A DNA stretch of 64,000 nucleotides, taken from Patescibacteria group bacterium. Its GTDB lineage: Bacteria > Patescibacteriota > Microgenomatia > UBA12405. Each line of letters begins with the position of its first letter. Positions within the stretch are counted from its first letter, which is position 1. The stretch spans positions 10,810 to 74,809 of the forward strand of contig JAHIPV010000020.1 of the NCBI GenBank assembly GCA_018902845.1. The letters are read 5' to 3'. Position numbers and translations under genes: made by a program. This document shows positions 6,608 to 48,757 of the stretch, in pieces. The notes under the pieces were generated by a model. It was not told the origin of the DNA. It saw only the letters and a list, made by a program, of their open reading frames with translations, and searched no databases.

Positions 6608-6635
6608 GCGGGCGACCGCAAGGGTCGCCCCTACA
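6608..6635. repeat. Family-A hairpin repeat GCGGGCGACCGCAAGGGTCGCCCCTACA
   Basis: Perfect 8-bp stem GGGCGACC/GGTCGCCC around a GCAAG loop. Four copies in the window; this one overlaps the 3' end of GT4 6631..7833. Confidence 0.7.
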
Positions 6636-7833
6636 GTAGCATTTTTTTGTAAATTTGCAATGTTTGGTGGGCGGTTTTGGTCCAGGAGAATTTGGAGGCT
6701 TGAATTAGACCTTTTTTGATGAGGGATTGGTGAAGCTTGGGAGAAATAGCTATTTTTTGAATAGCATTTTTAATGCTTTGGGTGGATTTTGGATTGATTA
6801 AAATTGTGGCGTTACCGGCTACTTCCGGCATGGAAGAAGTGTTGCTGGTGATAACCGGAGTACCGATAGACATGGCTTTTAGAATTGGCAATCCAAAACC
6901 TTCGTAAAGAGATGGATAAATAAGGGCGATAGCAGCGGCGTGAAGTGGAACCATGTCTTTTTCGGGAATATAGCCAAGAATTTTTATGGAGGATTGTTGA
7001 CAGATCCCTCGACTACGCTTCCAGCCAGAGGCGGACGCGGCGGGATGACATATGTCATTTCCCCAGCCGTATTTACCGGCGATGGCCAGTTGAAGGTTTG
7101 AGGTTGGATGTAAAAGTTTGAAGTTAGTAAATGCTTTGATTAATCGTGAGAGGTTTTTGCGGGGTTCACGGGTGCCTTGGGCGAGAATAAAATCGTCTAA
7201 TCCATATTTTTTCTTGATTTGATTAATTTGAATTTGCGGGCGACCGCAAGGGTCGCCCCTACACTTTTGTTTGAGTTGGTAAAATTTGGAATATTTTTTG
7301 GCTACGGCTTCGTAAATTACCGATGTAGTGTTGGAATTAATTTTTGGGAAAAGTTTAAGCAAATCTTTTTGAGTGTTTTTTGAAACACAAATAAAATGAG
7401 AACAGTGTTTTGTGGCTAGTTTCATTTTTTGAGTATGGGTGGAGATTATTTTTTGATCAAGCCATTGAGGATATATAAAAGGGGTAAGGTCGTGTATGGT
7501 GGTAATTAATTTAGCTTGTCTAGCTGGTGGTTGAGTCCAGTCAGAGGTATGAAAAACGTCGCATTTACCGATGAATGATTCTACGGGGAGAATATGGAGT
7601 TTGTTGAAAAGAATTTCTAGGAGTGTTATGGGTAGACGAAAATGAAAAATTTTTACATTAGAATGTTTTTTTAGCTTTTTGATTTCTGGTGGTAGTGGTT
7701 GACGGAGAGATGAAAAAAAAAGTTTATAAGTATTGGTTTTGTCTATTTTGACAAGATTTTTGACTAATTCTCGTGTGTAATTAGAAACTCCGGTGCCATA
7801 AGGGATAGATGAAATATCAATACCAATGATCAT
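6631..7833 (-). CDS. Glycosyltransferase family 4
   Basis: IYPSLYEGFGLPILKAMSIGTPVITSN. It carries an in-frame family-A hairpin (CRGDPCGRPQ) and a family-B-like insert (HPAASASGWKRSRG). Confidence 0.8.
   Translation of the reverse strand: MIIGIDISSIPYGTGVSNYTRELVKNLVKIDKTNTYKLFFSSLRQPLPPEIKKLKKHSNVKIFHFRLPITLLEILFNKLHILPVESFIGKCDVFHTSDWTQPPARQAKLITTIHDLTPFIYPQWLDQKIISTHTQKMKLATKHCSHFICVSKNTQKDLLKLFPKINSNTTSVIYEAVAKKYSKFYQLKQKCRGDPCGRPQIQINQIKKKYGLDDFILAQGTREPRKNLSRLIKAFTNFKLLHPTSNLQLAIAGKYGWGNDICHPAASASGWKRSRGICQQSSIKILGYIPEKDMVPLHAAAIALIYPSLYEGFGLPILKAMSIGTPVITSNTSSMPEVAGNATILINPKSTQSIKNAIQKIAISPKLHQSLIKKGLIQASKFSWTKTAHQTLQIYKKMLL
7003..7062. repeat. Family-B-like repeat fragment inside the GT4 CDS
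   Basis: GATCCCTCGACTACGCTTCCAGCCAGAGGCGGACGCGGCGGGATGACATATGTCATT, with the GGATGACA terminus and an ATGACATATGTCAT palindrome. Confidence 0.45.
7236..7264. repeat. Family-A hairpin copy inside the GT4 CDS
   Basis: TTGCGGGCGACCGCAAGGGTCGCCCCTACA. Confidence 0.7.
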
Positions 7834-7836
7834 GTT

Positions 7837-8097
7837 TTAGATAACTGTTTGAAAACTCCAGTTGTCTTTGTTTAATAAGACGGCCATTACCATGTTTTTA
7901 CTTCCTGTTTTTAACATTTTTTTCCCAAGTTTCCATGAACGTTGATATAAATTGCTGTTGACAGTGTCTATGGGGATTATTAGGGGTTGGGGTGGTAATT
8001 TTTTGAGAACTTGTGGATGTTCTAATAAATACTCGTTCATTTGATCCAAGAGGCGTTCGTTTGATTGATTTGATAATTTGTTAGTTTTTGTTTTCAT
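7837..8097 (-). CDS. Hypothetical protein
   Basis: 86-aa ORF packed between GT genes. No motif recognised. Confidence 0.35.
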   Translation of the reverse strand: MKTKTNKLSNQSNERLLDQMNEYLLEHPQVLKKLPPQPLIIPIDTVNSNLYQRSWKLGKKMLKTGSKNMVMAVLLNKDNWSFQTVI

Positions 8098-8491
8098 TTT
8101 TTTTAATGGTTTTCAAATAAATTCTAACATGTTTATTGTAATTTTTCCTTAAATATTTTCTTGTCCAAGATAGTGCTGTTTTTAAATCTTTAATTGGTGG
8201 GATATTTTCTAGGTTTTGTTTTCTTTTTAATAAATTATTGTAAATATGTCCGTGGAGATATATTTTTCCTTTGTGAAAAGTGTCAAAAACTAAAACATGT
8301 TTCCATTTATTCTGTATTAGACGAAGAAGTATGATTTTGAAATATAAAACCTCTTTTTTGTTTTTTGGATTGAGTTTGATTTTAATTATTTCTTTTGTTT
8401 TACCAGACCATCCCCTAAATGTTTCATAGCTGTGATCAAATTTTTTTGGTGGAAGTTTTGGAACTTTGGGATATTTATTTTTCTTAACCAT
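8081..8491 (-). CDS. Hypothetical basic protein
   Basis: 136-aa Lys-rich ORF in the operon. No motif recognised. Confidence 0.4.
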   Translation of the reverse strand: MVKKNKYPKVPKLPPKKFDHSYETFRGWSGKTKEIIKIKLNPKNKKEVLYFKIILLRLIQNKWKHVLVFDTFHKGKIYLHGHIYNNLLKRKQNLENIPPIKDLKTALSWTRKYLRKNYNKHVRIYLKTIKKNENKN

Positions 8492-8548
8492 TTCAATAAA
8501 TCTAAAATCTATCCACCACAGGCGGACTGAAGAATTTCTAAATAAATT

Positions 8549-9703
8549 CTAGACTTGTTTATATTTTAGTATATTTTTTCTTTTTTTAAGCATTTTGGGG
8601 AGATTTAGAATAATTTGTCCATAAGTAGTGATTAGGCTGGTTGGAAGAATATAAACAGATTTTAGCTTGTAAATTTTTATAGTTTGTTTTATTAAGCCAG
8701 AAAGATTGCGGAGGCGCTCTATAATAATTGGAAATAAATTATTTAGGATTTCTTTTTTGGAGTAATTTTTTATGATGATATAAAACCAGTTTTTGGCATC
8801 CATACGATTTCTAAAATTACCCATTTTAGAGCTGGTGGCGCCACCGATGTGGTAAGAAATTGCTTGGGGGATAAACAGAGTTTTATATTTTAAGTTATGC
8901 AAACGAAGAGCCAGGTCAACATCTTCTTCGTAAGCAAAAAAATCTGGATCAAACATGCCGATTTTTAAGAGTGTAGCTTTGTGATAGCAAACGATAGAAG
9001 CGGAGCTTCCCCAAACGAAATATGATGCGTCATTCTGAGACGAAGTCGAAGAATCTTTTTGTTGACTTTGATTCCGACGAGATTCTTCGTTGGCACTCAG
9101 AATGACGGGTTTTCCGTTGTCGATGTTGAGGGCTTTGCCTGAAATAAAAAATTTGAGTCCCCTGCTTTCTATCTTGGTACCGTTTTTATTTAGAACAGTG
9201 CCAAAAAAAGTAACAATTTTTGGATTTTTGTTGGTTCTTATAGCCAGAGAAATATGCTTGAACCAGTTTTTATCAATAGTCAAATCGTTATTGCAGATAA
9301 TTACATGATTGTATTTGGCTTTTAAAATTCCTTGGTTGACGGCTTTGGCAAAACCAAAGTTTGAAGAATTCTGGATGATTTGATAAGAAATGTCATTCCG
9401 AGTGGAACGAAGTGGAATCGAGGAATCTCTTGACTTGTTCAAGTTTCTCGCTTTGCGAGAATTCTGAGATAAACTCAGAGATCCCTCGACTTCGCTCGGG
9501 ATGACAGAGGGAGTATTTGTGATGATGGTTTCGAATGTTTGAATACTGTTATCAGTGGAGGCGTTGTCAACCAAAATAATTTCAAAATTTTTGATTTTGG
9601 CCAGTTTCAGAGATGACAAAAGAGAGTTAAGGCAATTAGGTAAAAATTTAGCGCCATTTAAGTTAGGAATGATGATGGAGACGGAAAAATCTTGATTTTT
9701 CAA
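8549..9703 (-). CDS. Glycosyltransferase family 2
   Basis: FSVSIIIPNLNGAKFLPNCLNSL ... IILVDNASTDNS. Two family-B repeats are inserted in frame. Confidence 0.8.
   Translation of the reverse strand: MKNQDFSVSIIIPNLNGAKFLPNCLNSLLSSLKLAKIKNFEIILVDNASTDNSIQTFETIITNTPSVIPSEVEGSLSLSQNSRKARNLNKSRDSSIPLRSTRNDISYQIIQNSSNFGFAKAVNQGILKAKYNHVIICNNDLTIDKNWFKHISLAIRTNKNPKIVTFFGTVLNKNGTKIESRGLKFFISGKALNIDNGKPVILSANEESRRNQSQQKDSSTSSQNDASYFVWGSSASIVCYHKATLLKIGMFDPDFFAYEEDVDLALRLHNLKYKTLFIPQAISYHIGGATSSKMGNFRNRMDAKNWFYIIIKNYSKKEILNNLFPIIIERLRNLSGLIKQTIKIYKLKSVYILPTSLITTYGQIILNLPKMLKKRKNILKYKQV
9037..9117. repeat. Family-B repeat inside the GT2 CDS, with inverted termini CGTCATTCTGAG / CTCAGAATGACG
   Basis: GCGTCATTCTGAGACGAAGTCGAAGAATC ... 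GAGATTCTTCGTTGGCACTCAGAATGACGG. Confidence 0.65.
9391..9507. repeat. Family-B repeat (~115 bp) inside the GT2 CDS
   Basis: TGTCATTCCGAGTGGAACGAAGTGGAATCGAGGAATCTC ... GATCCCTCGACTTCGCTCGGGATGACAG. The 5' module is nearly identical to 1071-1100. Confidence 0.65.
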
Positions 9704-9826
9704 ATTTCTAATTTCAAATTTCTAATTTTTAAACTAATTTTCTCCCTTTGGGTGACTTTGTTTACATGATTGCGCGCCCAAAAAAACATTACAGCGGTAA
9801 TTTGATAGTTCTGATTTTGGTAATTT

Positions 9827-10297
9827 TTAGATTTTATTTGGTAGATTAATTTTGTCTCCGACTTTTAGATTTAGTTTTTGGGCTTCACCGGCGTTTAATT
9901 CAATGACATAAAGGGAGAGAGTGGGGCAACTGTATCGTTTTAGTTGAAAAGCCGAAGTGTTTGGCTGGATTGGTGCTGTATGAATGGCAGTAATGTTTTT
10001 GTTTTCATCCAAAAAAATTATGTCAAGAGGAATTAGAGTGTTTTTCATCCAAAAAACATGATAATCAGGTTTTTTAAAAACAAAAAGCATGCCACAATTA
10101 GAACAAAGGCTTTTTCTGTCTGATAAGCCCTTGGCTCGCTGAGGAACGGTTTGAACAATTTCCAGTTTGTAGTTTTGATTTTTGATATTAACTTTTATTT
10201 TGTCGAGTTTTTGGGCTTTTAATATAGAAATGAGATAAAAAATAGAACACAGGATGGTGATTACTAAAGCTATTATTAAGAATTTTTTGATTGCCAT
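9827..10297 (-). CDS. DUF192-family protein (COG1430-like), secreted or membrane-anchored
   Basis: N-terminal hydrophobic segment and a conserved-looking core MLFVFKKPDYHVFWMKNTLIPLDIIFLD. Confidence 0.55.
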   Translation of the reverse strand: MAIKKFLIIALVITILCSIFYLISILKAQKLDKIKVNIKNQNYKLEIVQTVPQRAKGLSDRKSLCSNCGMLFVFKKPDYHVFWMKNTLIPLDIIFLDENKNITAIHTAPIQPNTSAFQLKRYSCPTLSLYVIELNAGEAQKLNLKVGDKINLPNKI

Positions 10298-10298
10298 T

Positions 10299-11690
10299 TT
10301 AGATGATTAGTTTATCTTGTTTAATTAAGAATATATTGTTTTTTTGTTTGGTTAAATCTAACAGTTTTTGGGTGAAACCGGATTTTGATAGTAATATGTA
10401 TTTTTCTTTTTTATAGTTTTTATTTAAATCAAGATTTTTGATTTTTTCTCTTAATTGCTTAAGTGTGTTGATGCCAACTTTTTTGTTTGACCATTTGGAT
10501 TCTATAAAAGCAATTTCGTTTTTAAGAGAGTTAGTGCCAATATTGTCAATCTCTGTTTCATTGTGCCAAAATCTACCAATTTTTTCAAAATTACCTATTT
10601 TTTTTGAGTATTGATTTATTATTTCCGGAGCGATTCTTTGGTAGTTCTCTTGGGTAATAGCCGGAAAATAGATTTTTAGTTTTGATTTAATTAAGTTGAT
10701 GTTTCCCAGTTCTATCTCTTGGCGATAAGGAAGAACAAAATTAAACCAAAAATTTACGAATTGATCTTTAATCCTATATATTCCCTTTCTTGGTTTTTGA
10801 GGTTGTTTTTCTGTAATTGGTATTTCTTTTTCTATAAGACCAAGATTTTCGAGTACAAAGAGATATTTATGTATAATTGTTTTTTTTAGGCCTGTTTGTT
10901 CGATAATATCGGAAATTTTATTTCTCTTAAAAGCAAGAGACTTTAGGATACTATAATAATTTTTTGGTTCTCTCAATTCTTCTTTTAGTAGAAAATCAAT
11001 TTCTTCATATAGAGGTGAGTTTTTGTTTAGTATTTCTTTTTCGATTGCTTTTTGTAGTTGAGTGTATTTTGAAAGTTTGTTTAGGTATTCAGGGTTCCCT
11101 CCTGTTATAGAAAAAAATGATAGAAAATTTGGGAATTTTAGTTTGGGGAAAAATTTTTTGGATTGGTAAAAATTTAATGGTTTGAGATGTATTTGGCCGG
11201 TTCTTCTTCCAAAAAGCGGGGCTTTTTCTGATAATGTTTCATTTATCATCATGCCGAAGCTGGAGCCGCAGAGTATTAGTTTGATATTTTTATTTCTTTT
11301 TAATTTTTCATCCCAGTATTGTTGAAAAATGGAACTTAATCCTGGTTGAGAGGAAACAAAATAAGGGTATTCATCGAAGGCTATGATGGTTTTTTTCTTT
11401 GTATTTCTGATAAGAAAATTAAAAAAATCATCCCAAGATTTAAATGGTTGATTTTCTAAAAGTGGTTGTTTGAATTTTGTAGCGCAGGTTTCTGATAATT
11501 GTTGTAGATTGTCTTTGTTGCCAACTTGACGGCCAAGAAAATAAATATAGTTTTTATTTTTGCAAAAATGTTTAATTAACTCTGTTTTTCCTACTCTTCG
11601 TTTTCCGTAAATTATAATCAATGAGGCGTTGTTGTTGGAGAATTCTGATTTTAGAAAAGATGTTTCTTGTGTTCTGTTTATAAATTTCAT
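10299..11690 (-). CDS. AAA+ ATPase (archaeal-type ATPase domain, DUF234-like C-terminus)
   Basis: Walker A LIIIYGKRRVGKTEL and Walker B IIAFDEYPY. Confidence 0.6.
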   Translation of the reverse strand: MKFINRTQETSFLKSEFSNNNASLIIIYGKRRVGKTELIKHFCKNKNYIYFLGRQVGNKDNLQQLSETCATKFKQPLLENQPFKSWDDFFNFLIRNTKKKTIIAFDEYPYFVSSQPGLSSIFQQYWDEKLKRNKNIKLILCGSSFGMMINETLSEKAPLFGRRTGQIHLKPLNFYQSKKFFPKLKFPNFLSFFSITGGNPEYLNKLSKYTQLQKAIEKEILNKNSPLYEEIDFLLKEELREPKNYYSILKSLAFKRNKISDIIEQTGLKKTIIHKYLFVLENLGLIEKEIPITEKQPQKPRKGIYRIKDQFVNFWFNFVLPYRQEIELGNINLIKSKLKIYFPAITQENYQRIAPEIINQYSKKIGNFEKIGRFWHNETEIDNIGTNSLKNEIAFIESKWSNKKVGINTLKQLREKIKNLDLNKNYKKEKYILLSKSGFTQKLLDLTKQKNNIFLIKQDKLII

Positions 11691-11723
11691 AGTCTACTTA
11701 TAAATAGTCTACTTACAAGTAGA

Positions 11724-13004
11724 CTATTTGTCAAGATGTTTTACCAGATTATTTATTATTTTATCCCATGTATGGTTTTGTTTTATATAGTTATAGCCGT
11801 TTTGGGAAAGTTTACGGTAGAGCTTGGGATTATTTAATAGTTTTTGGATTTGTTTGATCAAATCATTTAGTGAGTTTTTTTTGAATATCAGTCCCCCATT
11901 GGATTTATTTATTAATTCTTTGACCGGTGGAATATTAGCGCCGATTACCGGTTTTTGGCGGGCCATGGCTTCTATAAAAGTAAGGCCAAAACTTTCATGA
12001 ATGGAGGGATTGACCAAAATGGTGCAATTGTCTAAGTAGTACTTTAGGGTTTTGGGGTTATAGCGCTTGGGTGTAATAGTAATTTTTTGGCGGATATTTT
12101 TGGGGATATTGTTCAAAAGTTTTTGGATTTTGGGATAGTATAAAGTTTTTTGACCTGCTATTGTCAGGGTTAGACTTGGATATTTAATTGACAGTTTTTC
12201 AAAGGCTTGGATTAGTAGTTCAATGCGTTTGTGGGCGGAAAAATTACCAAGAAATAAAATAACTGGATTGTTCGGGCGACCGTAAAGGTCGCCCCTACAG
12301 TAGACTGGTTTTAAAAATGATTTGTCGATGCCGGCGCCGAGGGGTAAAAATTTTGATTTGAGGATATGATATTTTTTGGAAAGATAGTTGGCTTCGTGTT
12401 GGGTTAGGGTCCAGATTAAATTGGAATTTTGGAGGGTTTTTATAAGAGGTTTGCGAGAAAAGGCAAGGTCGAATTGATGAAAACAGGGAAGAGTCAACAG
12501 TTTAGATTTGGTGAGCTTCTGAACAAGTTTTGAATATAAAACTATGGTGGTTGGAAGAGGGCCGGCTATAACCCAGTCGGGTTTGAATTTATGAATTTTG
12601 ATTAGAGCTTTTATAAATGGAATGAATTTGAAAATAGGGCCGAGTTGAAGGATGCCAAGAAGATTTAAAAAAAAAGATCCTTCACTGTGTTCAGGATGAC
12701 GTGGAGACAGTTTTTGAGAAATTAATGAGAGTAGTTTGAGGGGGCGACGAAGGTGTTTGTAGACGGGAAGGCGGATTGTTGGACGACTGCTCCGATGCTC
12801 ACTGTGTTCGAGCGGAGTGCCTTTGGCAGATGATTGGATGACTGGTGATTTAGATGTGACAAAATCATCGGTTGAATAACAGTTGGTAGTCAGGACCATG
12901 ATTTGATGGCCTTTTTTGCCAAGGTACTCCCCTGTTTTGGCTATGATTTTTGATCCGCCGTCAACAGCGGGAGGGAAAATGTGGGTTAGGAGTAAGATTC
13001 GCAT
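11724..13004 (-). CDS. Glycosyltransferase family 4
   Basis: VNPSIHESFGLTFIEAMARQKPVIGAN. It carries a family-A copy (CRGDLYGRPNNP) and family-B-like inserts (PRHPEHSEGS). Confidence 0.8.
   Translation of the reverse strand: MRILLLTHIFPPAVDGGSKIIAKTGEYLGKKGHQIMVLTTNCYSTDDFVTSKSPVIQSSAKGTPLEHSEHRSSRPTIRLPVYKHLRRPLKLLSLISQKLSPRHPEHSEGSFFLNLLGILQLGPIFKFIPFIKALIKIHKFKPDWVIAGPLPTTIVLYSKLVQKLTKSKLLTLPCFHQFDLAFSRKPLIKTLQNSNLIWTLTQHEANYLSKKYHILKSKFLPLGAGIDKSFLKPVYCRGDLYGRPNNPVILFLGNFSAHKRIELLIQAFEKLSIKYPSLTLTIAGQKTLYYPKIQKLLNNIPKNIRQKITITPKRYNPKTLKYYLDNCTILVNPSIHESFGLTFIEAMARQKPVIGANIPPVKELINKSNGGLIFKKNSLNDLIKQIQKLLNNPKLYRKLSQNGYNYIKQNHTWDKIINNLVKHLDK
12273..12304. repeat. Family-A hairpin (degenerate: CGGGCGACCGTAAAGGTCGCCCCTACA) inside the GT4 CDS
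   Basis: Same stem as the other A copies, with a variant loop. Confidence 0.6.
12675..12702. repeat. Family-B fragment inside the GT4 CDS
   Basis: GATCCTTCACTGTGTTCAGGATGACG. A related degenerate copy lies at 12787-12826. Confidence 0.5.
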
Positions 13005-13070
13005 TAATCGATGCTATAAAGTATATATTTTATATTACTATGTGGAATCGATTGAAGTGAATTTCCTGTC

Positions 13071-13120
13071 TTGACACGTCTTCGTATACTTTAGATAATA
13101 TAAAGTATATGAAGACGTAT
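13071..13120 (+). promoter_or_regulatory. Putative abiEi promoter and operator: TTGACA-N17-GATAAT overlapping a 17-bp inverted repeat
   Basis: The arms CGTCTTCGTATACTTTA and TAAAGTATATGAAGACG differ by one mismatch and flank the -10 element and the ATG. An extra half-site ATAAAGTATAT lies at 13014-13030. Confidence 0.5.
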
Positions 13121-13702
13121 GATTTAGCATTATTAACTAAAGAGTTGGCAGAATCGGGAATATTGTTTTTTGATTTAAAAACTTTAAGAGATATTTTGAA
13201 TATTAAAAATGAAGATTCTTTTTTTGATGTAATAAAAAGATTGAGACGATCCGGAGTTATAAAAAAGATTGAACGAAACAAATATTTATTAAAAGGCAAG
13301 CTGGAGTTTAATGATTTTGCTTTGGCGAATTTTATTTATAGTCCTTCTTATGTTTCTTTTGAATCAGCTTTGAATTTTCATGGTATTTTGTCTCAATTCC
13401 CTTTGGAAATAAGTTCTGCTACCACTAAAAATACAAAGAAAAAATCAGTTGAAGGAAGGCACTTTTTTTATTGCCAGATTAAGAAGAGTTTGTTTTGGGG
13501 TTATGTTAAAAAAGATTCTTATTTGATGGCTGTGCCGGAAAAAGCATTGATAGATCAATTTTATTTATATACAAAAGGTTTGAAATCGTTTGGGGTTGAT
13601 GAATATGATTTATCTTTAATTAACAAGAGAGTTTTAAAGAAATATTTAATACGAATACCTGAAATTAAAAATAAATTGTTAAAAATTTGCGGGTTTTTAT
13701 GA
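13109..13702 (+). CDS. abiEi: AbiEi-like antitoxin / transcriptional regulator (type IV TA, abortive infection AbiE)
   Basis: It lies upstream of and overlaps a clear AbiEii-family gene, has the size expected for AbiEi, and has an inverted-repeat operator in its promoter. Confidence 0.55.
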   Translation: MKTYDLALLTKELAESGILFFDLKTLRDILNIKNEDSFFDVIKRLRRSGVIKKIERNKYLLKGKLEFNDFALANFIYSPSYVSFESALNFHGILSQFPLEISSATTKNTKKKSVEGRHFFYCQIKKSLFWGYVKKDSYLMAVPEKALIDQFYLYTKGLKSFGVDEYDLSLINKRVLKKYLIRIPEIKNKLLKICGFL

Positions 13703-14469
13703 TTGATAAAACTCAATTAAACAGTTTAGTAAAAAAATTTAAAATAAATGAAACTACTGTACTGAGGGAATATTTACAGGTTTGGTTTTTACAAAGATTA
13801 TATTCTGAATCAAAAAGTAAAAATATTTATTTTAAAGGAGGCACTGCCATTCATTTGATTTATAAGGCGCCTCGTTTTTCTGAAGATTTGGATTTTACGG
13901 TTAATATGGATGAAAAAGAGTTTTTGAAGTTTATTGAAAAGTTTTTTTCTGCTTTATCCGGGCTTGAACCTGTCAGTTTTAAACAAAGAAAAGTCTTGGC
14001 CGGTTTTAGATTTTTACTAACTTGCAAGTCAAGTGTGGTGAGTTATCCTGTTTTTATAAACCTTGATTTTTCTTTTAGGGAAATGGCATTGAAACCGGAA
14101 AAGTCGATTATAGAAACTGATTTTCCAATTATTTTTAATTCATATATTTATCATTTGTCTGCCGAGGAGATGTTGGCGGAAAAAGTAAGAGCTATTTTGA
14201 GCAGAAAGAAAGGAAGAGATATTTATGATTTGTGGTATTTATTGAATTTGGATACGAAATTTAACCGTGAATGGATTTTAAAGAAATTAGAATATTACAA
14301 AATGAAAAGTGTAGACATGGAAGAAATTGTGGGGCGAATAAATGGATTTGGGGCAAAACAATTTGTTTTGGATATGAGGCCTTTTGTTCCAATAAATGAA
14401 AAAGACAAGTTAGAATCTCTTTATGCTTATATTTGTGACTATATAAAGAGGAAACTAAAGGATAAGTAG
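13687..14469 (+). CDS. abiEii: AbiEii/AbiGii-family nucleotidyltransferase toxin (DUF1814)
   Basis: Motif YFKGGTAIHLIYKAPRFSEDLDF characteristic of the family; 16-bp overlap with the upstream gene. Confidence 0.75.
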   Translation: MRVFMIDKTQLNSLVKKFKINETTVLREYLQVWFLQRLYSESKSKNIYFKGGTAIHLIYKAPRFSEDLDFTVNMDEKEFLKFIEKFFSALSGLEPVSFKQRKVLAGFRFLLTCKSSVVSYPVFINLDFSFREMALKPEKSIIETDFPIIFNSYIYHLSAEEMLAEKVRAILSRKKGRDIYDLWYLLNLDTKFNREWILKKLEYYKMKSVDMEEIVGRINGFGAKQFVLDMRPFVPINEKDKLESLYAYICDYIKRKLKDK

Positions 14470-14471
14470 AT

Positions 14472-15389: not shown

Positions 15390-15442
15390 GACAAATTTAA
15401 GGTTGTACTTGAAATTTGTCCAAAATTGTTTTAGAATAAATC

Positions 15443-16588: not shown

Positions 16589-16633
16589 GAGACGGATGGG
16601 GTTGGTTTTTAAAAACAGTTGCTATAATAAATT

Positions 16634-16825
16634 ATGGTTGATTTAAAAAGTGGGTTTTATAAAACTTTTGCCAATTTACCATTGGGAGTAAGAGATGGGA
16701 TAGTATTGGTAATAGACGGTCAGCCGACAACTTGGAATGTGATCAAATTGGAGGTTGATACAGACAGTAAAACATCAAAGAAGGCCTTAAAATTGTTAGA
16801 TGAGTTGAGATTAATTAAGAAATAG
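16634..16825 (+). CDS. Small hypothetical protein
   Basis: 63-aa ORF immediately upstream of the octamer array. Weak support. Confidence 0.3.
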   Translation: MVDLKSGFYKTFANLPLGVRDGIVLVIDGQPTTWNVIKLEVDTDSKTSKKALKLLDELRLIKK

Positions 16826-16940
16826 ATAATTAGACAACTAGACAACTAGATAACTAGATAACTAGATAACTAGATAACTAGATAACCGGATAACCGGATA
16901 ACCGGATAACCGGACAACTAGATAACCGGATAACCGGATA
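16823..16940. repeat. Periodic 8-bp tandem array, about 14 units (AACTAGAT / AACCGGAT / GACAACTA)
   Basis: Sequence reads AGATAATTAGACAACTAGACAACTAGATAACTAGATAACTAGATAACTAGATAACCGGATAACCGGATAACCGGATAACCGGACAACTAGATAACCGGATAACCGGATAA. The same octamer family occurs at 47113, 47763, 49489 and 58071. Confidence 0.8.
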
Positions 16941-16945
16941 AAAAC

Positions 16946-17182
16946 ATGATGAAAAAAGGTAAAAAAATAAATATAAACGAAAAAGAAATTGTAATGGCTC
17001 AAGTCAGAACTTATGATAGTGATTTTGAATTAAGTATTGGAAGTTTTGGAACTTTTTCAAAAAAAGAATTGCTGGAAAATATCGAAAAAGAAAGTGAAGT
17101 TGGCAAGCAAATTGTTGAAATTCAGATGAATTATTTGAGGGATTTGGTCAGTGGAGATATTTACAAAATTTTGGAAGATTAA
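16946..17182 (+). CDS. Small hypothetical protein, translationally coupled to the downstream caspase-like gene
   Basis: 78-aa ORF whose stop overlaps the next start in a TAATGG junction. Confidence 0.4.
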   Translation: MMKKGKKININEKEIVMAQVRTYDSDFELSIGSFGTFSKKELLENIEKESEVGKQIVEIQMNYLRDLVSGDIYKILED

Positions 17183-19021: not shown

Positions 19022-19047
19022 AGGTAAGGATTAGGGACAATAAAGAT

Positions 19048-20109
19048 TTAGGGAGTTTGTTTGAAAACAAAATAATTGTCGACCGAAAATTGGCATTGAT
19101 CTATAAAGATTGATTTAAAAAGATCGAGATTGTTTTGTTCGTAAAATAACAGAGTAGCTTGTTTGTATAGTTTTTCGTCAACACTTCTAAATGGAATTGG
19201 AAAGTGATTGTGGGCGAGCAAGATGGCATTGCCGATAATACGACCGGTTCTTTTGTTGCCATCTTCAAAGGGTTGAATATAACTAATTAAGATCATACTT
19301 AGCAAAGATTTGGTAAAAATATTATCAGTAGAGTTGATTAACCGGCACATTTTTTGCATGCTTTCTCTAATTTGGTATTGATTGTCTAGAGGTTTGTATT
19401 TGGTGCCGGTAATGCCTACCAGGGTTTTGCGTAAGTTTTTGGAAACATTGAGTTTGTAGGTAATTATTCTGTGAATTTCTTGAATGGTGGGCAGGTCTGT
19501 TTTTTTAAAATATTTTTTTTGGTTGAAAATCAGATCTATGGCATCTTTGTGGTTTAGAAGCATGATGGTTTCGCTTTTTTGTTTACCTTTAGCTTCGATG
19601 CCTTTTTTTAACAGGAGTTCAGTGTCTAACAGGCTGTATGTGTTGCCTTCGATGAGGCTAGATTTCCAACTTAATTCAATGGTTATTCTTTCGATTTCTT
19701 TTTGAATTATGGTTGGTGATAACTTTTTGAAATTTTGCAGATATTTTTTTTGAAGTTTAAGTAATTGTTTTGTTTCGTCTTTGTTGAAGATATCAGAATT
19801 TTTTAGAGTTGAAAAAATTGAAAAATTAAAGTTTGGCAGTATGTTTCGTGAATCAATCGGTATAGAAAAATATTTGTCAATATCTATAGGTCTGAATAAT
19901 AATCCCTTGTTTGTAAGTTTGTAGGTTGTTTTTGGACCATGACCAATACGAAGCAAATAGTTTTTGGAAAGTAGAAGAGACAGATCTCTTGATAGAGTTA
20001 TGGTTGTAATTTCTTTATCTAAGAGATTTGAGAGTTGTTTTGGGGATAATGGTTTATCCTGGGAAAAGACGGATAATATTTTGGTTTGTCTGTGATTAAG
20101 TTGATTCAT
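19048..20109 (-). CDS. Fic/Doc-family protein with N-terminal winged-HTH-like region; its motif has Gln in place of the catalytic His
   Basis: The motif reads IQPFEDGNKRTGR where the canonical Fic motif is HPFx(D/E)GNGR. The His is replaced by Gln and it has NKR as in Doc. Confidence 0.65.
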   Translation of the reverse strand: MNQLNHRQTKILSVFSQDKPLSPKQLSNLLDKEITTITLSRDLSLLLSKNYLLRIGHGPKTTYKLTNKGLLFRPIDIDKYFSIPIDSRNILPNFNFSIFSTLKNSDIFNKDETKQLLKLQKKYLQNFKKLSPTIIQKEIERITIELSWKSSLIEGNTYSLLDTELLLKKGIEAKGKQKSETIMLLNHKDAIDLIFNQKKYFKKTDLPTIQEIHRIITYKLNVSKNLRKTLVGITGTKYKPLDNQYQIRESMQKMCRLINSTDNIFTKSLLSMILISYIQPFEDGNKRTGRIIGNAILLAHNHFPIPFRSVDEKLYKQATLLFYEQNNLDLFKSIFIDQCQFSVDNYFVFKQTP

Positions 20110-21828: not shown

Positions 21829-21839
21829 AATTTTAAATA

Positions 21840-39253: not shown

Positions 39254-39254
39254 A

Positions 39255-41505: not shown

Positions 41506-41526
41506 ATAATTAAGAAATGCGATAAC

Positions 41527-43434: not shown

Positions 43435-44455
43435 ATTCTCTTGCTCCGTTTATTAATTTATCAAAAGGGGTGTTGATCTTTTTTTTAAAAGGAGACAAAT
43501 ATTTGATTTTGATGTTTTTGAAACCAATATAAGTCATAATTGTCTCTAATAGTTCGGCTGGTACTTTAGTTTTGTGGGTATAGTCGTAGTAAAAGCTATA
43601 ACTGCTTACCTGTAGATTGTTAGGGTTTGGAGTTTCAATAATGATTATGCCATTTGGTGCTAGTTTGTTGTATGAGAGCTGAAGCAGATCGTATATTTCA
43701 GGAAAAAGCATGTGTTCAATAAGGTGAAATATAGAAATTCCGCAGAAAAGTTTTTGGGTTTGCTTAAGATAGGCTATGGCATCGCGTTTGTAAACTTTAT
43801 ATCCTGACTGTTTGGCTATATAAACGCATTCTTGGTTGATATCTATTCCGATGACCCTTTTGAGGCCGTATTGTGTCAGGATGGAAAGGAATTCTCCATT
43901 TCCAAAGCCAATATCTAGAAATGGGTATTTTTTGGAAAGAGAAGTGCAGGGTTTCAGATATTTTGTGTATTGTTGCTGTCTGGTGGTTATTAGTTTTGAC
44001 GAACCGCGAAAAATATTTTCAAGGTAGTTGTATAGTTTATCTGATTCTTGATCAAAAAAAAGAGGTTGATATTCTAATTGTCTTTTTTTGTTGAGATTAT
44101 TATGTAGAGTGATAATCTCGCTACTTATTTTTGCTTGGTTTTTAGTGATGTCACTTAGTGTATCCTTGATGTTTTGGATAATTTTTACTGTGAGATCGTT
44201 GAAGTGCGTCTGAATAGTGGTATACACTTTTATTATTCTAAGAGTGATCAGTTTTAAGAACCTAAATTTAGTTTTGGGAGGTAATAACATTCGTGGGTTT
44301 TTATAACTGTTGAGGACAAAAATGTTGTTTTCTAAAGCACTAATCTTATTGTGGAGATTAGTGCTGAAAGTCGAGATGTTTTTCTTTGAAAACAAGCTTT
44401 TGAGATTCCGTTCTAGGTCAAAAATGTCTTTATTTGGTTCATTGTAAAAAATCAT
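43412..44455 (-). CDS. Class I SAM-dependent methyltransferase with N-terminal coiled-coil-like region
   Basis: FLDIGFGNGEFL ... IFHLIEHMLFP ... LAPNGIIIIETPN. Confidence 0.7.
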   Translation of the reverse strand: MIFYNEPNKDIFDLERNLKSLFSKKNISTFSTNLHNKISALENNIFVLNSYKNPRMLLPPKTKFRFLKLITLRIIKVYTTIQTHFNDLTVKIIQNIKDTLSDITKNQAKISSEIITLHNNLNKKRQLEYQPLFFDQESDKLYNYLENIFRGSSKLITTRQQQYTKYLKPCTSLSKKYPFLDIGFGNGEFLSILTQYGLKRVIGIDINQECVYIAKQSGYKVYKRDAIAYLKQTQKLFCGISIFHLIEHMLFPEIYDLLQLSYNKLAPNGIIIIETPNPNNLQVSSYSFYYDYTHKTKVPAELLETIMTYIGFKNIKIKYLSPFKKKINTPFDKLINGAREYGVIATK

Positions 44456-44457
44456 AT

Positions 44458-45678
44458 TTATATGTGAATGGTTTGTAATAATTTATTTTTAAATATGTCA
44501 AAGTTGTATTTTTCAAGTAGGTTGTTTTGTATGTTAATTATTGACCGGATTCGGTCTGGTTTATTGATTAAATCTTTGAGTATTTTATTTATATCTTCAA
44601 TATTATCATACGTATATATGTTATTATTTTGGGTAATTTGGGAAAAGGCGCTGTTTCGATTAATAATTAAGGGAATGCCGTGGTAAATTGCCTCAAAATT
44701 GACTATACCCAAGCTTTCTTCAATTGAAGGGTTAATAAATATGTCAATTTTTTCGAATTTTCTTTGTTTTTCTGATTTTTTAAAATTATAGTTTATTTTA
44801 ACTATATTTTGTTTAATATATTTTTTAAATTCTTTTTCTATTAAGCTAGAGGAGTTTGTTTTGGCACCGGAAAAGTAAAGAGTTAATTTGTAATTTTGTT
44901 TTTGCCAATATAGTAGGTATTTATCTAAATAGTTTTTAAAGATAATCAGATTTTTTCTAAGGGTGATTTGTCCGATAAAACCGATATTTATTTGTTTGTT
45001 GTGAATCCTTTTTAATTTTTTAGAGATAATTTTGTTAAGGTTTGTTTGTTGTTTTTTTATTTGCTTGATGGTGTATGGGCAAAAAGTGGTTTGGATAAGT
45101 TTTGATTTATTAATTTTGTAGTTTTTGATAAGTTGTAATTTTTCCATGGGAGAGAGGTAAAGAATTTTGTGGGAATAATTAAGAGATTTTTGAAAAAAAG
45201 GACAATTGTTGTAGTAATTAACATTATGGTAAGCAGGAATTAGGATTAGTTTTTGGTTGAATTTCTTGGCAAAAATATAGCTGTCATAAAACATTTTAGT
45301 TGGCATGCCTGTACCGATAATAATATTTGAGTTTTTGATTATATTTATAATTTTGGGAGTATATTCTAAAATTGGGCCGAAATAAAAAGGAGAAAAGAAG
45401 CCAACTTTGAGTATAATTTTATTTAGAAATTTATTGGCTATTCGTTGCCAGAAGAAATTTAACTTTAGTCTGTGGATGTTGTTTTTTTTATCTGTTTTAT
45501 TGTTTGGTAAAAAGTCTTTGAAGGTTTTATAGCTATCCAGAGTTGATCCTTTGCCTGTAATAATATGGACAGTATATTTTTCATCTAAAATTTTTTTAGT
45601 TTCTTCTATTAAATATTCGAGACCGCCTTTGGCTGGTGGAAAGCAATGAACAAAAATACAAATACTTTTATTTTTCAT
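44458..45678 (-). CDS. Glycosyltransferase family 4
   Basis: INPSIEESLGIVNFEAIYHGIPLIINRN. Confidence 0.75.
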   Translation of the reverse strand: MKNKSICIFVHCFPPAKGGLEYLIEETKKILDEKYTVHIITGKGSTLDSYKTFKDFLPNNKTDKKNNIHRLKLNFFWQRIANKFLNKIILKVGFFSPFYFGPILEYTPKIINIIKNSNIIIGTGMPTKMFYDSYIFAKKFNQKLILIPAYHNVNYYNNCPFFQKSLNYSHKILYLSPMEKLQLIKNYKINKSKLIQTTFCPYTIKQIKKQQTNLNKIISKKLKRIHNKQINIGFIGQITLRKNLIIFKNYLDKYLLYWQKQNYKLTLYFSGAKTNSSSLIEKEFKKYIKQNIVKINYNFKKSEKQRKFEKIDIFINPSIEESLGIVNFEAIYHGIPLIINRNSAFSQITQNNNIYTYDNIEDINKILKDLINKPDRIRSIINIQNNLLEKYNFDIFKNKLLQTIHI

Positions 45679-46405
45679 TAGTATATTTTTTTATAATGGT
45701 TTCTGGGTTACCGTGGGAAATTAGTTTGGATTTGTCTAGATAAATTGCTTTGGTGCAGAAGGATTGGATTGATTCCATGGAGTGGGAAACATAAATAATA
45801 GTGATGCCGGATTTTTTGAATTGTTCCATTTTGGCGAAGCATTTGGCTTGAAAAGCAGTATCGCCTACTGCTAGGATTTCATCAATTAATAGTATTTGGG
45901 GGTTTACGTGAATGGCTACTGAGAAAGCCAGGCGCATGTACATGCCGGAGGAATAGTGTTTGATGGGTTGGTTTATAAATTGGTGAAGTTCGGAAAAGTT
46001 TAAAATATCTTGGTAATAATTATCGATTTGTTTTTTGGAGAGGCCTAAAATAGAGCCGTTTAGGTATATGTTTTCTTTGCCGGTCAGTTCGGGATGAAAA
46101 CCGGCGCCGAGTTCGATTAAGGGTGAGACTTTACCGTTTACAATAACTTTGCCTTTGGTAGGTGACATGACGCCGGCTATGAGTTTTAAAATAGTTGATT
46201 TGCCGGCTCCGTTGGGGCCGATGATTCCCAGAGTCTCTCCTTTATTGACTGAAAAGGAGATGTTTTTTAGAGCGGTGAAATTTTGTTTAGTTTTTTGACG
46301 GCCAAAGAGAGCCGGGAGGAATTCTTTGAAGGTTTTTTGGGAGTATAAAGAGAATTCTTTAGTGACATTGGTGAATTTGATGATGGGGTGGTTGTTTTTT
46401 GACAT
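45668..46405 (-). CDS. ABC transporter ATP-binding protein for polysaccharide or teichoic-acid export (Wzt/TagH/KpsT-like, no C-terminal carbohydrate-binding domain)
   Basis: Walker A GIIGPNGAGKST, ABC signature YSSGMYMRLAF and Walker B ILLIDE. Confidence 0.85.
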   Translation of the reverse strand: MSKNNHPIIKFTNVTKEFSLYSQKTFKEFLPALFGRQKTKQNFTALKNISFSVNKGETLGIIGPNGAGKSTILKLIAGVMSPTKGKVIVNGKVSPLIELGAGFHPELTGKENIYLNGSILGLSKKQIDNYYQDILNFSELHQFINQPIKHYSSGMYMRLAFSVAIHVNPQILLIDEILAVGDTAFQAKCFAKMEQFKKSGITIIYVSHSMESIQSFCTKAIYLDKSKLISHGNPETIIKKYTNEK

Positions 46406-46517
46406 GATTTTGTTGATTTTTGGTACTTATTTAATTTTACTTTAACTTGACAATCACTTTGTATAAATGTAAACTATTGTTAATCATCAGGGAGAATACG
46501 ACCCTTAGACTACGTGT

Positions 46518-47102
46518 CTATGAGTGACGCCTCCCGATTTTTTTTGGCCTAATTTTAGGGCTTTCTAAATATTCTAATTTTTCTTTCTCTCGGTATAAAA
46601 AGAGTTTGTACAGTTGGAGATTCTTTAATAAGCTTGATTCGGAGTGTTTATTGGGAATAATAATTTTTAATAATTTTTTGTTTTTTATTAAATATTGGTG
46701 TAAGCAGAAAAAGTCTCCGTCTCCTGAAACAATGACGGCCTTTTGGTAATTTTTAAATTCAATGGCGGCAGAATGCAAAACTAGTTCGGCATCAACATTT
46801 CCCTTTGGTTTGTTGTGATTGTCTTTGACTGTGGGTTTAAATACTAGTTGATAACCAAATGAGCACAGACTTTTATAAAGACCTTCATATTGTTTCAGAT
46901 ATCCGATAAACAAAAAGGCCTTAGTAACTCTAAATTTGTCTGAGAGAAATCGATGAAATTTTTTAAAATCTAGTTTCCAGCCTTTGTAAATTAACTGTCT
47001 GTTTCTATAGATATTTTTAGAAGTACCTAGATTTAGGTTTTGGCTGTCAATGAAAGCATAGATTGGCTTATTTTTTATTTTTTGGATTATTTTTTTAGAC
47101 AT
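46518..47102 (-). CDS. NYN-domain (LabA-like, PIN-related) protein
   Basis: PIYAFIDSQNLNL ... KGNVDAELVLH ... AVIVSGDGDFFCL. Confidence 0.7.
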   Translation of the reverse strand: MSKKIIQKIKNKPIYAFIDSQNLNLGTSKNIYRNRQLIYKGWKLDFKKFHRFLSDKFRVTKAFLFIGYLKQYEGLYKSLCSFGYQLVFKPTVKDNHNKPKGNVDAELVLHSAAIEFKNYQKAVIVSGDGDFFCLHQYLIKNKKLLKIIIPNKHSESSLLKNLQLYKLFLYREKEKLEYLESPKIRPKKIGRRHS

Positions 47103-47112
47103 ACGGGTGTTA

Positions 47113-47143
47113 TAGCTGGATTACTGGATAACCGGATGATGGG
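47113..47143. repeat. Octamer-family array (CTGGATTACTGGATAACCGGATGA)
   Basis: Same 8-bp periodicity and units as 16823-16940. It lies upstream of NYN gene 1. Confidence 0.6.
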
Positions 47144-47211
47144 GTTGTTTTTTTAATTGACATGGAGTTGTTGATTTAGTATAATTTGATTATCACGATG
47201 AGAGGGTACGC

Positions 47212-47751
47212 CTAAGGTCTTGTCCGAAGGTTGCTCCCTCTTTTTTTTGTTGATAATTTCTTTTTTAGGTCGTTTATATAAACGAAGTATTTTCTAAATT
47301 TTCTTAATAAGGCCGAGTATTTTTTTGGATTTGGAATGATAATGTGGGAGAGTTTGTTTTTCTTTTTGAGATATTCTATTAAGCAGTGAAAGTCTCCGTC
47401 GCCTGAAACAATGATTGCTTTGTTGTAATTGGGATATTGGATCATGGTGTGTAAAACCAGATCAGCGTCTACGTTGCCCTTGGTGTATCTTTTATCGTCT
47501 TTTTTGTATTCCAGTGTTGGTTTAAAAACAACTATATAGTCGGATTCTTGCAGATATGTGTAAAGTATTTGGTTTCCGGGAATGTAACCAATGAATAAAA
47601 AGGCTTTTTCAACTTTGTATTTATCTTTGAGGTAAATACGGAATCTTTTGAAATCTAGTTTCCAGCCTTGAGATCTGATGGAGAGGTTTAGGTTTTGGCT
47701 GTCAATGAAAGCGTAAATGGGCTTGGTTATTTTTTTATTTTTTTTAGACAT
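47212..47751 (-). CDS. NYN-domain (LabA-like) protein, tandem paralogue
   Basis: PIYAFIDSQNLNL ... KGNVDADLVLH ... AIIVSGDGDFHCL. Confidence 0.7.
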   Translation of the reverse strand: MSKKNKKITKPIYAFIDSQNLNLSIRSQGWKLDFKRFRIYLKDKYKVEKAFLFIGYIPGNQILYTYLQESDYIVVFKPTLEYKKDDKRYTKGNVDADLVLHTMIQYPNYNKAIIVSGDGDFHCLIEYLKKKNKLSHIIIPNPKKYSALLRKFRKYFVYINDLKKKLSTKKRGSNLRTRP

Positions 47752-47762
47752 ATGGGTATTAT

Positions 47763-47796
47763 AGCTGGATTACTAGATTACTGGACAACTAGACTG
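47763..47796. repeat. Octamer-family array (GCTGGATTACTAGATTACTGGACAACTAGAC)
   Basis: It lies upstream of NYN gene 2. The flanking sequence CATATGGGTATTATAGCTGGATTACT is duplicated at 47101-47125. Confidence 0.6.
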
Positions 47797-47806
47797 TTTG
47801 GGCATT

Positions 47807-48604
47807 TTAGATGTTGTCGGCGAAGGTTTTTTCTTGAGTTTTGAAATATTTAAGACCGATTAAAAGAGTAAGAATAGAAACTAAAAGGGCGATGAACAGA
47901 CTGGTAATGTTTGGCATTCCCCTGCCTAGAATTGATTGGCGGTAAGCGTTGGTAAGAACGCTTAAGGGATTGAGCTGGAATATGAAGCGAAGATGGGCCG
48001 GAACTATGTCTATCGGGTAAATAATGGGAGTTAGGTACATCCAGAGCATAAGAATAAGACCAAGCATGTATTGGACATCACGATAAATTAGATTGGCGGC
48101 AGAGAAAAAAAGAGAAACACCCAGAGTGAAAATTTGTTGAATCAGAAATATGGGTATGAACCACAAGACATTTAGATTGATTGGGATTTTGTAGATAAAG
48201 AAAAAAGCGATTAAGATGGTAGAAGCGAAAAAGAAATCAATGATTTTGGCAATGATGGTAGCTAGGGGTAAAATAGTTCTGGGAAAATATATTTTTGTGA
48301 TTAAGTTAGAACTGTTGACAAGTGAATTGGTGGCCGAAGAAAGAGAATTTGAAAAAAGAGTCCATGGCAAGAGAGCGGTGTAAAGGAAAATTGAATATGG
48401 GATTTTGGAATTGGCGTGAGTGGGAATACGCATGATGACAGAAAAGGCGAAGCTCATAACCAGCATTTGTAAGAAAGGGTTTAAGATTACCCAGAAGTAG
48501 CCTAGAATTGATTGTTTGTAACGGGCTTTGATTTCGCGACCGACCATTTGAAAAAGCAGTTCTTTGCGAGCTAGGATGGCTTTGGTTTCGGTGATGAGGA
48601 GCAT
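47807..48604 (-). CDS. ABC-2-type polysaccharide export permease (Wzm/TagG/KpsM-like)
   Basis: 265 aa with 6 TM helices, typical ABC-2 topology. It is the partner of the ATPase at 45668..46405. Confidence 0.75.
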   Translation of the reverse strand: MLLITETKAILARKELLFQMVGREIKARYKQSILGYFWVILNPFLQMLVMSFAFSVIMRIPTHANSKIPYSIFLYTALLPWTLFSNSLSSATNSLVNSSNLITKIYFPRTILPLATIIAKIIDFFFASTILIAFFFIYKIPINLNVLWFIPIFLIQQIFTLGVSLFFSAANLIYRDVQYMLGLILMLWMYLTPIIYPIDIVPAHLRFIFQLNPLSVLTNAYRQSILGRGMPNITSLFIALLVSILTLLIGLKYFKTQEKTFADNI

Positions 48605-48626
48605 GAAGGTAGTATAAAGGAATAAA

Positions 48627-48685
48627 TCCTAAATTCTAATATCTAAATTCTAAACAATATTTAAATTCAAATGTTCAAAACTTAA
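48627..48685. repeat. Family-C AT-rich module, second copy
   Basis: CCTAAATTCTAATATCTAAATTCTAAACAATATTTAAATTCAAATGTTCAAAAC. Confidence 0.5.
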
Positions 48686-48727
48686 AATAAATTTAATGTT
48701 GTTATTGGGAGGAATGAAGTGATGCGT

Positions 48728-48757
48728 CTGCGGGCGACCGCAAGGGTCGCCCCTACG
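48728..48757. repeat. Family-A hairpin copy, intergenic
   Basis: CTGCGGGCGACCGCAAGGGTCGCCCCTACG. Confidence 0.7.

Follow-up and report, generated by a model that had tools for sequence, protein, structure and literature searches.

Repetitive extragenic palindromes (REPs) and their partner enzymes, RAYTs (tyrosine transposases associated with REPs), have been studied mostly in Proteobacteria, with some examples from Cyanobacteria and Bacteroidetes. Classical REPs exceed 100 copies per genome and lie mostly outside genes, near the 3′ ends of open reading frames (ORFs). Here we describe a GC-rich hairpin that recurs in a stretch of 64,000 nucleotides from a Patescibacteria group bacterium (GenBank assembly GCA_018902845.1, contig JAHIPV010000020.1, positions 10,810 to 74,809 of the forward strand; "the window" denotes this whole stretch), and we consider it probable that the hairpin belongs to the GTAG-tagged REPs, more exactly to the long ones whose stem foot consists of three G-C pairs and which are cognate to TnpA-REP subclass 2.4 (RAYT group 4). 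The element is of a familiar kind; what is new and unusual is the host, a candidate-phyla bacterium with a tiny genome, where several copies lie in frame in enzyme genes. Subclass 2.4, or group 4, systems are scattered among phyla and are known for long REPs with a foot of three G-C pairs, double-foot REPs, and in-frame REPs inside the RAYT gene (PMC6006769), while intragenic in-frame copies are a documented minority property of GTAG and CGTC REPs (PMC3733652). In E. coli, S. maltophilia and Marinomonas, the GTAG strand of REPs is known to fold as a single-stranded DNA hairpin. RAYTs of groups 2 and 3 bind this folded strand, discriminate its complement, cleave at CT or CA and can transfer strands, with single-stranded DNA at replication forks or R-loops as their proposed substrate (PMC3333891, PMC8266576).

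The element was first noticed in an earlier note made from the letters of the window alone. It contains a perfect 21-nt hairpin, GGGCGACC-GCAAG-GGTCGCCC, present in three exact copies (6610-6630, 7238-7258 and 48732-48752) and one loop variant at 12274-12294 (GTAAA, two loop substitutions with the stem intact). The note had placed these at 6608, 7236, 48728 and 12273; all four are real, and its coordinates are 1-4 nt off, mostly from including a conserved GC that sits 5′ of the stem. CTAC directly follows all four window copies, so the minus strand reads GTAG and then the hairpin: GTAG-GGGCGACC-CTTGC-GGTCGCCC, usually followed by GCA, in all about 28 nt. The features that carry the argument are:

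6607..6634, minus strand: REP copy 1, GTAG-GGGCGACC-CTTGC-GGTCGCCC-GCA, whose tag provides, with its TAG (6631-6633), the GT4a stop codon.
6631..7833, minus strand: the glycosyltransferase gene GT4a, in which REP copy 2 and an element of CGTC type lie in frame, REP copy 1 being at the stop codon.
7235..7262, minus strand: REP copy 2, in frame within GT4a and encoding (C)RGDPCGR(P), residues about 191-198.
11724..13004, minus strand: the glycosyltransferase gene GT4b, with REP copy 3 and two CGTC-like element insertions.
12271..12298, minus strand: REP copy 3, with loop TTTAC on the GTAG strand, in frame within GT4b and encoding CRGDLYGRP.
48729..48756, minus strand: REP copy 4, between the divergent genes 47807..48604 (minus) and 48953..49492 (plus).

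The translation of two copies as peptides, CRGDPCGRP in ORF 6631..7833 and CRGDLYGRP in ORF 11724..13004, is as the note had it. The copy at 6608, which it saw as straddling the 3′ end of the first of these ORFs, adjoins the stop codon, which its TAG supplies.

The stem is a perfect 8 bp with a GGG/CCC foot and a 5-nt loop, the whole unit measuring 25-28 nt, and its predicted single-stranded DNA fold has an energy of -10.4 to -11.2 kcal/mol (z-score -2.7 to -3.7). Unpaired GTAG stands directly 5′ of the stem in the four window copies and in two flanking copies described below, and this tag, at one end of a palindrome of 20-40 bp with a stem within 6-13 bp and a small loop, is what characterizes GTAG REPs. 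The tag abuts a foot of three G-C pairs, GTAG|GGGCGACC...GGTCGCCC, which is the subclass 2.4 arrangement as defined in PMC6006769. Homology between copies is limited to the unit of about 28 nt and their flanks are unrelated; CT immediately precedes GTAG in two of five copies. The terminal inverted repeats, target-site duplication and 100-400 bp unit expected of a miniature inverted-repeat transposable element or a derivative of an insertion sequence (IS) were not found, the copies sharing only the short unit.

The four copies are the window's only GC-rich (71-81% GC) perfect hairpins with a stem of at least 7 bp, against a window GC content of 34%, and 100 dinucleotide-preserving shuffles yielded no match to GGGCGACC-N5-GGTCGCCC. 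We attach practically no probability to a chance palindrome or an artefact of metagenome assembly. Contigs of some assemblies do break at or near the hairpin, but identical insertions occur in independent assemblies (ENA, JGI, Logan and two NCBI metagenome-assembled genomes), reading frames are preserved, and the hairpin is also present in cultured isolates. Contigs of the two NCBI assemblies, GCA_018895715.1 (JAHIMY010000028.1) and GCA_022013015.1, are 100% identical to the window. Among other assemblies of the same population, contig L122 ends at the hairpin (3244-3268) and L130 (1-84) changes sequence or starts about 150 nt away. Such contig ends suggest that these repeats fragment or mis-join short-read assemblies.

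The analysis covered 80.6 kb of the host genome: the 64-kb window with 8.8 kb to its left and 7.8 kb to its right. The identical hairpin recurs twice more at 2-6 kb beyond the window, once within a GT2 gene and once within a radical-SAM gene. Both copies are read as VGATLAVAR, that is, in another frame than CRGDPCGRP. The contig extension also carries a third GTAG hairpin family, GTAGGGACAGCC..., which brings the total in the 80.6 kb to six hairpin copies (about 74 per Mb if uniform) and two other GTAG hairpins. Four of the six copies are intragenic, one is at a stop codon and one lies between divergent genes. The proteins of the window include GT2 and GT4 glycosyltransferases, radical-SAM enzymes, methyltransferases, sugar-nucleotide enzymes and toxin-antitoxin modules, and no transposase is among them; their nearest homologues are named Patescibacteria, Candidatus Shapirobacteria or Microgenomates.

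Scanning one genome per species with the pattern GGGCGACC-N5-GGTCGCCCCTAC located the identical 25-mer in at least 119 genome loci from more than ten phyla; among the matches listed are Chloroflexota, Clostridia, Gamma-, Delta- and Alphaproteobacteria, Planctomycetota, Bacteroidota, Acidobacteriota, Gemmatimonadota and others, including the cultured isolates Rheinheimera soli and Pseudoflavonifractor. Scans of metagenomes (restricted to AT-rich 5′ flanks) and of viral contigs added 111 metagenome loci and 61 viral contigs with the hairpin. Loops in the genome loci are mostly GCAAG or ACAAG, and the hairpins are arranged as singletons, inverted pairs (for example in L005, L046, L047 and L091), "double-foot" GTAG...CTAC palindromes and tandem arrays. 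When other stems are included, 470 of the 547 GTAG hairpins of these loci have a GGG foot, which indicates that the part conserved across phyla is GTAG plus the GGGC foot, and that the GACC stem is one frequent variant. Regular arrays were also seen in some GC-rich genomes, with five copies at 78-nt spacing in L090 (Gemmatimonadota) and a 367-nt spacing in L217 and L206; these arrays include their flanks and lie in coding-looking repeats.

A link to a transposase comes from these other genomes. The search for RAYTs started from E. coli RayT, taken from the annotated K-12 record, and continued with tblastn, jackhmmer and a hidden Markov model (HMM) of 120 sequences; two local RAYT HMMs, of which jackhmmer supplied one and a set of 120 homologues the other, were applied to all 306 loci as well as to the window with its flanks. 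RAYT-like ORFs lie near an identical hairpin in six loci, as follows:

L091: the hairpin flanks the RAYT ORF on both sides, in inverted orientation.
L038: two hairpin pairs lie about 110 nt upstream of the RAYT ORF.
L231: the hairpin lies about 40 nt from the RAYT ORF.
L068: the hairpin lies inside the RAYT ORF (186-214, in frame) and nearby.
L085: the hairpin lies in frame inside the RAYT ORF (4046-4074).
L110: the hairpin splits the RAYT ORF (5834-5858).

The best curated family for these ORFs is NF047646 REP_Tyr_transpos (E 1e-16 to 1e-22, with scores just below the cut-off); they also match Pfam Y1_Tnp and, more weakly, IS200. The motifs NH[MLVF]H, WQRNYYEH and YIxxNP are present in L085, L091, L068, L038 and L231, and REP-derived peptides (RRGDPMGRPY, VGAGSEPAPT or GATHRVAPT) stand between HUH and Y; in L085, L068 and L231 a hairpin insertion in the RAYT gene was observed to be in frame. 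A profile built from the RAYT-like ORFs retrieves at least 8000 proteins, several of them named RayT or REP-associated tyrosine transposase by their source databases. Judged from genome sizes rather than from a computed statistic, finding RAYT genes six times in hairpin-centred sequence that totals about 1.4 Mb would be far above chance for a single-copy gene. The subclass 2.4 RAYT motifs and the in-frame REP insertions in RAYT genes are features of other genomes, and no such RAYT gene was found in the 80.6 kb of the host genome.

The earlier note had suggested a REP-like target of a Y1 transposase. The GTAG tag, the GC stem and the RAYT genes that elsewhere stand beside, are flanked by or are interrupted by the identical hairpin support this; the enzyme itself was not found in the 80.6 kb. 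From what is known of other REPs, the GTAG-carrying strand would fold as a single-stranded DNA hairpin, to which a monomeric HUH/Y1 enzyme would bind, recognizing hairpin and tag in a strand-specific manner. Cutting at a nearby CT or CA and rejoining would then allow the REP to be excised, copied or inserted, and the target of insertion would be single-stranded DNA at replication forks or transcription bubbles. A RAYT may have mobilised the hairpin in this way in the present genome.

Comparison of filled and empty sites bears on how the copies arose. In GT4a, copy 2 is an in-frame insertion of seven residues (21 nt) relative to orthologues; it is present in the window and in P0002 (90% identical), absent from P0003 (77% identical) and 117 further orthologues, and so found in only 2 of 120. 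Copy 1 is absent at the orthologous locus L123, where two GT4 genes (from a 77% relative) overlap by 17 nt. In the window the same two genes are set 171 nt apart (6460-6630, compared with L123 1660-1700) by a block that begins with the hairpin and holds block C and E′, two further modules described below. The hexamer ATGCTA is duplicated at both junctions of the block, restoring the upstream C-terminus and the downstream start codon; the block lacks terminal inverted repeats as well as a second full copy. Copy 3 in GT4b is common to the window and P0121 (L128; 92% identical), whereas in P0122 (L127; 85% identical) the same linker holds (CCAGTTAT)n 8-mer repeats instead of the hairpin. These comparisons show the copies as lineage-specific gains rather than ancestral coding sequence, acquired after the split from relatives of 77-85% protein identity. 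Relatives of 88-92% identity have them too, and the gains are therefore not recent.

The gains are tolerated in loops and linkers of proteins. The AlphaFold model of GT4a (mean predicted local distance difference test score, pLDDT, 81.6) places the REP-encoded residues in a low-pLDDT coil between two helices of an otherwise confident GT-B model. Because five of the six reading frames of the hairpin unit are open, genes can retain copies in frame, where these form part of disordered loops or linkers. The same genes contain further insertions. In the N-terminal part of GT4b (about 12792-12830) a hairpin-like insertion of 39 nt, encoding AKGTPLEHSEHRS, is absent from the 92%-identical L128 and is the most recent insertion seen. 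At about 6995-7050 of GT4a a TGTC-tagged element stands in frame at the same loop in three orthologues, each with a different variant; that of the window carries an extra nested 21-nt insertion, CCGCGTCCGCCTCTGGCTGGA, and the region is predicted to be disordered (residues 258-279). The 8-mer of the GT4b orthologue, repeated as CCAGTTAT in its coding linker (L127, about 2010-2050) where the window has the hairpin at 12274, also forms intergenic tandem arrays in the window (CTAGATAA, CCGGATAA or CTGGATTA) at 16822-16950, 47110-47136, 47760-47785, 49489-49545 and 58080-58130.

Several of these observations weigh against assignment to a RAYT-mobilised REP. Copy 1 arrived within the 171-nt block with a 6-bp duplication, a signature unexpected for single-strand transposition by a Y1 enzyme, and copy 3 resembles replacement of a linker rather than a clean insertion. 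The insertions are common to the relatives of 88-92% identity, with no sign of ongoing mobility. Four of six copies are intragenic, whereas REPs are typically extragenic, and inverted pairs (the REPINs or BIMEs of other genomes) are absent from the 80.6 kb, all copies being singletons in one orientation. No Y1 or RAYT ORF was found in the 80.6 kb, either by Pfam on 57 window ORFs or by the two local RAYT HMMs on six-frame ORFs, and no low-GC hairpin contig carries a RAYT, the HMM matches falling only on contigs of at least 45% GC. When the 120 best RAYT homologues were ordered by how far their amino-acid composition is of the AT-rich type, no Patescibacteria-like candidate emerged. A literature search returned no paper on REPs or RAYTs together with Patescibacteria or the candidate phyla radiation (CPR), and the RepRanger survey is without mention of them.

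An alternative that draws on the same facts is that a REP-like sequence spread here without a RAYT, whether by recombination or gene conversion between copies, because hairpins caused template switching, or because horizontally acquired DNA brought it in; the enzyme would have been lost or never present. The missing enzyme, the block with its duplication and the linker replacement would all agree with it, as would an element of 81% GC in a genome of 34% GC, the viral contigs that carry the hairpin, and the possible loss of REPtrons (RAYT genes flanked by their cognate REPs), to which Di Nocera et al. (PMC3733652) draw attention. However, the copies lie inside vertically inherited orthologues, the lack of flank homology beyond the unit argues against segmental duplication or conversion tracts, and only about 8% of a genome of roughly 1 Mb was covered, so that the absence of a single-copy gene means little. 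We therefore regard this alternative as rather unlikely and keep to a GTAG REP of the subclass 2.4 type, although the 6-bp duplication and the linker replacement are unlike simple Y1 transposition, and recombination or repair probably contributed too.

All eight GTAG hairpins of the host genome carry the tag on the minus strand of the window, the C-rich strand, within blocks of minus-strand genes; for orientation alone the two-sided probability of this is about 0.008. The GC skew of the window is +0.16 to +0.47 per 2 kb throughout, whichever strand carries the genes. Across 145 loci with hairpins in a single orientation, the GTAG strand showed no bias with respect to local GC skew (69 vs 75, p = 0.68), and the uniform orientation is for that reason not read as a general replication-strand rule. 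A more radical idea, which we hold to be improbable, is that the lineage has no RAYT at all and yet has repeatedly acquired hairpins tagged GTAG (and CGTC), and these only on the non-template or sense strand, in genes that are uniformly oriented with respect to a strong GC skew. If true, this would point to a RAYT-independent route of insertion, coupled to transcription or replication, that remodels loops of cell-surface glycan enzymes in ultra-small genomes.

The same orientation can be taken as a sign that the hairpins are primarily RNA elements, such as stabilisers of mRNA 3′ ends, processing sites or modulators of translation termination, whose repetition reflects function and not mobility. 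Copy 1 begins at the GT4a stop codon and forms a stable stem, all eight hairpins carry the tag on the sense strand, most hairpin copies on other low-GC contigs lie within 60 nt of an ORF 3′ end, and E. coli REPs stabilise upstream mRNA and affect translation near stop codons (PMC3733652). A 3′-end role is impossible for the four of six copies in mid-ORF, however, and copy 4 lies between divergent genes, upstream of a putative promoter in block C. No U-tract follows the stem, a search of the whole window with Rfam (gathering thresholds) and a scan for tRNA and tmRNA gave no match, and the conserved tag and the RAYT association elsewhere favour an origin at the DNA level. A general RNA function is hence unlikely in our estimation; a stabilising or translational role is plausible for copy 1 only and would be secondary, and this copy, starting at the stop codon, may now also act on the mRNA 3′ end. 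A terminator was considered separately and rejected: neither strand has a T-run after the hairpin, the sense-strand tail is A-rich (GCAAAAAA or GCAAATTC), most copies lie inside ORFs, and a terminator scan calls none of the four. The earlier note, which had held that the hairpin was not a simple terminator, was right in this.

The recurrence of one peptide could in principle reflect selection on the protein, for a Cys-flanked RGD loop (CRGDPCGRP) in surface-glycan enzymes, since two GT4 enzymes have the same peptide, in the same frame, at an inter-domain linker. The DNA argues strongly otherwise: the same letters are non-coding at copies 1 and 4, are read in the other frame in the GT2 and radical-SAM genes, and occur across many phyla in all contexts, while the encoded loop is predicted to be disordered and is present in so few of the GT4a orthologues. 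We judge such selection very improbable, and the GTAG REP accounts for the peptides as repeat-derived.

The earlier note had also joined the hairpin to two companion modules, an AT-rich block C and a palindrome E, which it saw beside the copies at 6608 and 48728. The elements concerned are:

6468..6541, minus strand: block C copy 1, AT-rich and immediately upstream of the GT4 start codon (gene 5326..6459, minus).
6567..6587, minus strand: E′, a degenerate E-like copy with two mismatches, no GTAG and most of the stem lost.
48623..48696, minus strand: block C copy 2, immediately upstream of the ABC-2 permease start codon (gene 47807..48604, minus).
48776..48815, minus strand: a CGTC-tagged hairpin, CGTCATTCTGAGG...CGAAGAATC, between REP copy 4 and E.
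48845..48869, minus strand: palindrome E, GTAG-AGACAGGTT-TCT-AACCTGTCT, a perfect hairpin at 48845-48865.

Block C is real at both sites, its copies being 88% identical over 74 nt, and E is perfect at 48845; E′, in contrast, is degenerate and untagged, and folds no better than shuffles (z-score -0.69). The order of the modules is permuted, being C-E′-hairpin at one site and C-hairpin-(CGTC element)-E at the other, and only two of the six hairpin copies of the host genome lie near C or E. Because the order differs and four of the six copies have neither module, the hairpin is not part of a composite with them, and this portion of the note falls away. CTAC follows palindrome E, which makes E a second GTAG-tagged hairpin family; a related hairpin, GTAGGGACAGGTT..., adjoins a GGGCGACC hairpin in L037. 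Among all loci collected, block C was found only at the two window sites and their duplicates. It is not part of the mobile unit, and is probably a shared 5′ or promoter region.

The CGTC-tagged hairpin next to E belongs to a second hairpin family in the window. This family is tagged CGTC or TGTC, has the form CGTCATYCYGA-loop-TCGARGRATC and a stem that could include tandem G.A pairs, and is present in at least 18 copies. Heads on the plus strand lie at 1065, 1239, 3428, 3738, 9029, 9392 and 61845, and elements on the minus strand at 1177-1216, 1294-1333, 3453-3492, 3763-3802, 9067-9106, 9466-9505, 12661-12700, 48776-48815, 49766-49805, 61888-61927 and 63495-63534. Many lie inside ORFs and several form inverted dimers, and they match the CGTC-tagged REP super-family, for which we know of no transposase. 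The glycan-synthesis cluster itself is interspersed with toxin-antitoxin or defence-like genes, namely AbiEii, two Fic/DOC genes and two tandem NYN-domain paralogues (13687-14469, 19048-20109, 46518-47751 and 48953-49492).

The finding leaves the understanding of the REP mechanism unchanged; what it adds is that GC-rich hairpin families, many of their members in frame, persist even in a streamlined candidate-phyla genome (roughly 1 Mb, 34% GC). Such elements are a source of insertions and deletions in surface-glycan enzymes, and the peptides CRGDPCGRP and VGATLAVAR in Patescibacteria proteins should be annotated as repeat-derived and not as functional motifs. Users of metagenome assemblies should also be aware that hairpins of this kind can break or mis-join contigs.

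Set beside the described systems, the host hairpin resembles each of them in part. The REP/BIME elements of E. coli and their RayT (YafM) have the same GTAG 5′ of the hairpin and single-stranded DNA recognition of one strand (Ton-Hoang 2012, Messing 2012, Corneloup 2021); unlike the host copies, they form BIME pairs outside genes and their stems are bulged and imperfect, and RayT, a group 2 enzyme, is only about 25% identical to the RAYTs beside the identical hairpin. The subterminal hairpins of IS200/IS605 likewise combine a hairpin with a 5′ tetranucleotide "guide" and are processed on single-stranded DNA by Y1 HUH enzymes, but here no tnpA or tnpB lies between paired ends and the hairpin is a solitary unit of about 28 nt. 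Rickettsia palindromic elements (RPEs) are also small palindromes inserted in frame in the genes of a reduced genome, where surface loops tolerate them (cited in PMC3733652); they differ in that RPE-1 is 100-150 bp long, that RPE-4 and RPE-6 are CGTC-tagged and not GTAG-tagged, and that no RPE transposase is known.

The likeness is closer to the GTAG super-family (Di Nocera et al. 2013, PMC3733652), which has the same tag, a stem of 6-13 bp, a short loop and some intragenic, peptide-encoding copies; as in that super-family, several families occur in one genome (GGGCGACC, AGACAGGTT and GGACAGCC), together with CGTC-tagged elements. Intragenic copies in that study were mainly in replication and repair genes, whereas here they are in glycan-synthesis genes, which simply reflects the content of the window. 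The closest match is to the REPs of subclass 2.4, or RAYT group 4 (Quentin et al. 2018, PMC6006769; Bertels et al. 2017). The present copies depart from those systems in their Patescibacteria host, their occurrence as mostly intragenic singletons in one orientation, and the lack of a RAYT in the 80.6 kb. They share with them the same 5′ GT[AG]G tag at the foot of a long perfect stem, and the RAYTs that stand beside the identical hairpin in other genomes carry NHxH, WQ and YIxxNP, to be compared with the NH[IFV]H, WQ and YIxNNP motifs of subclass 2.4.

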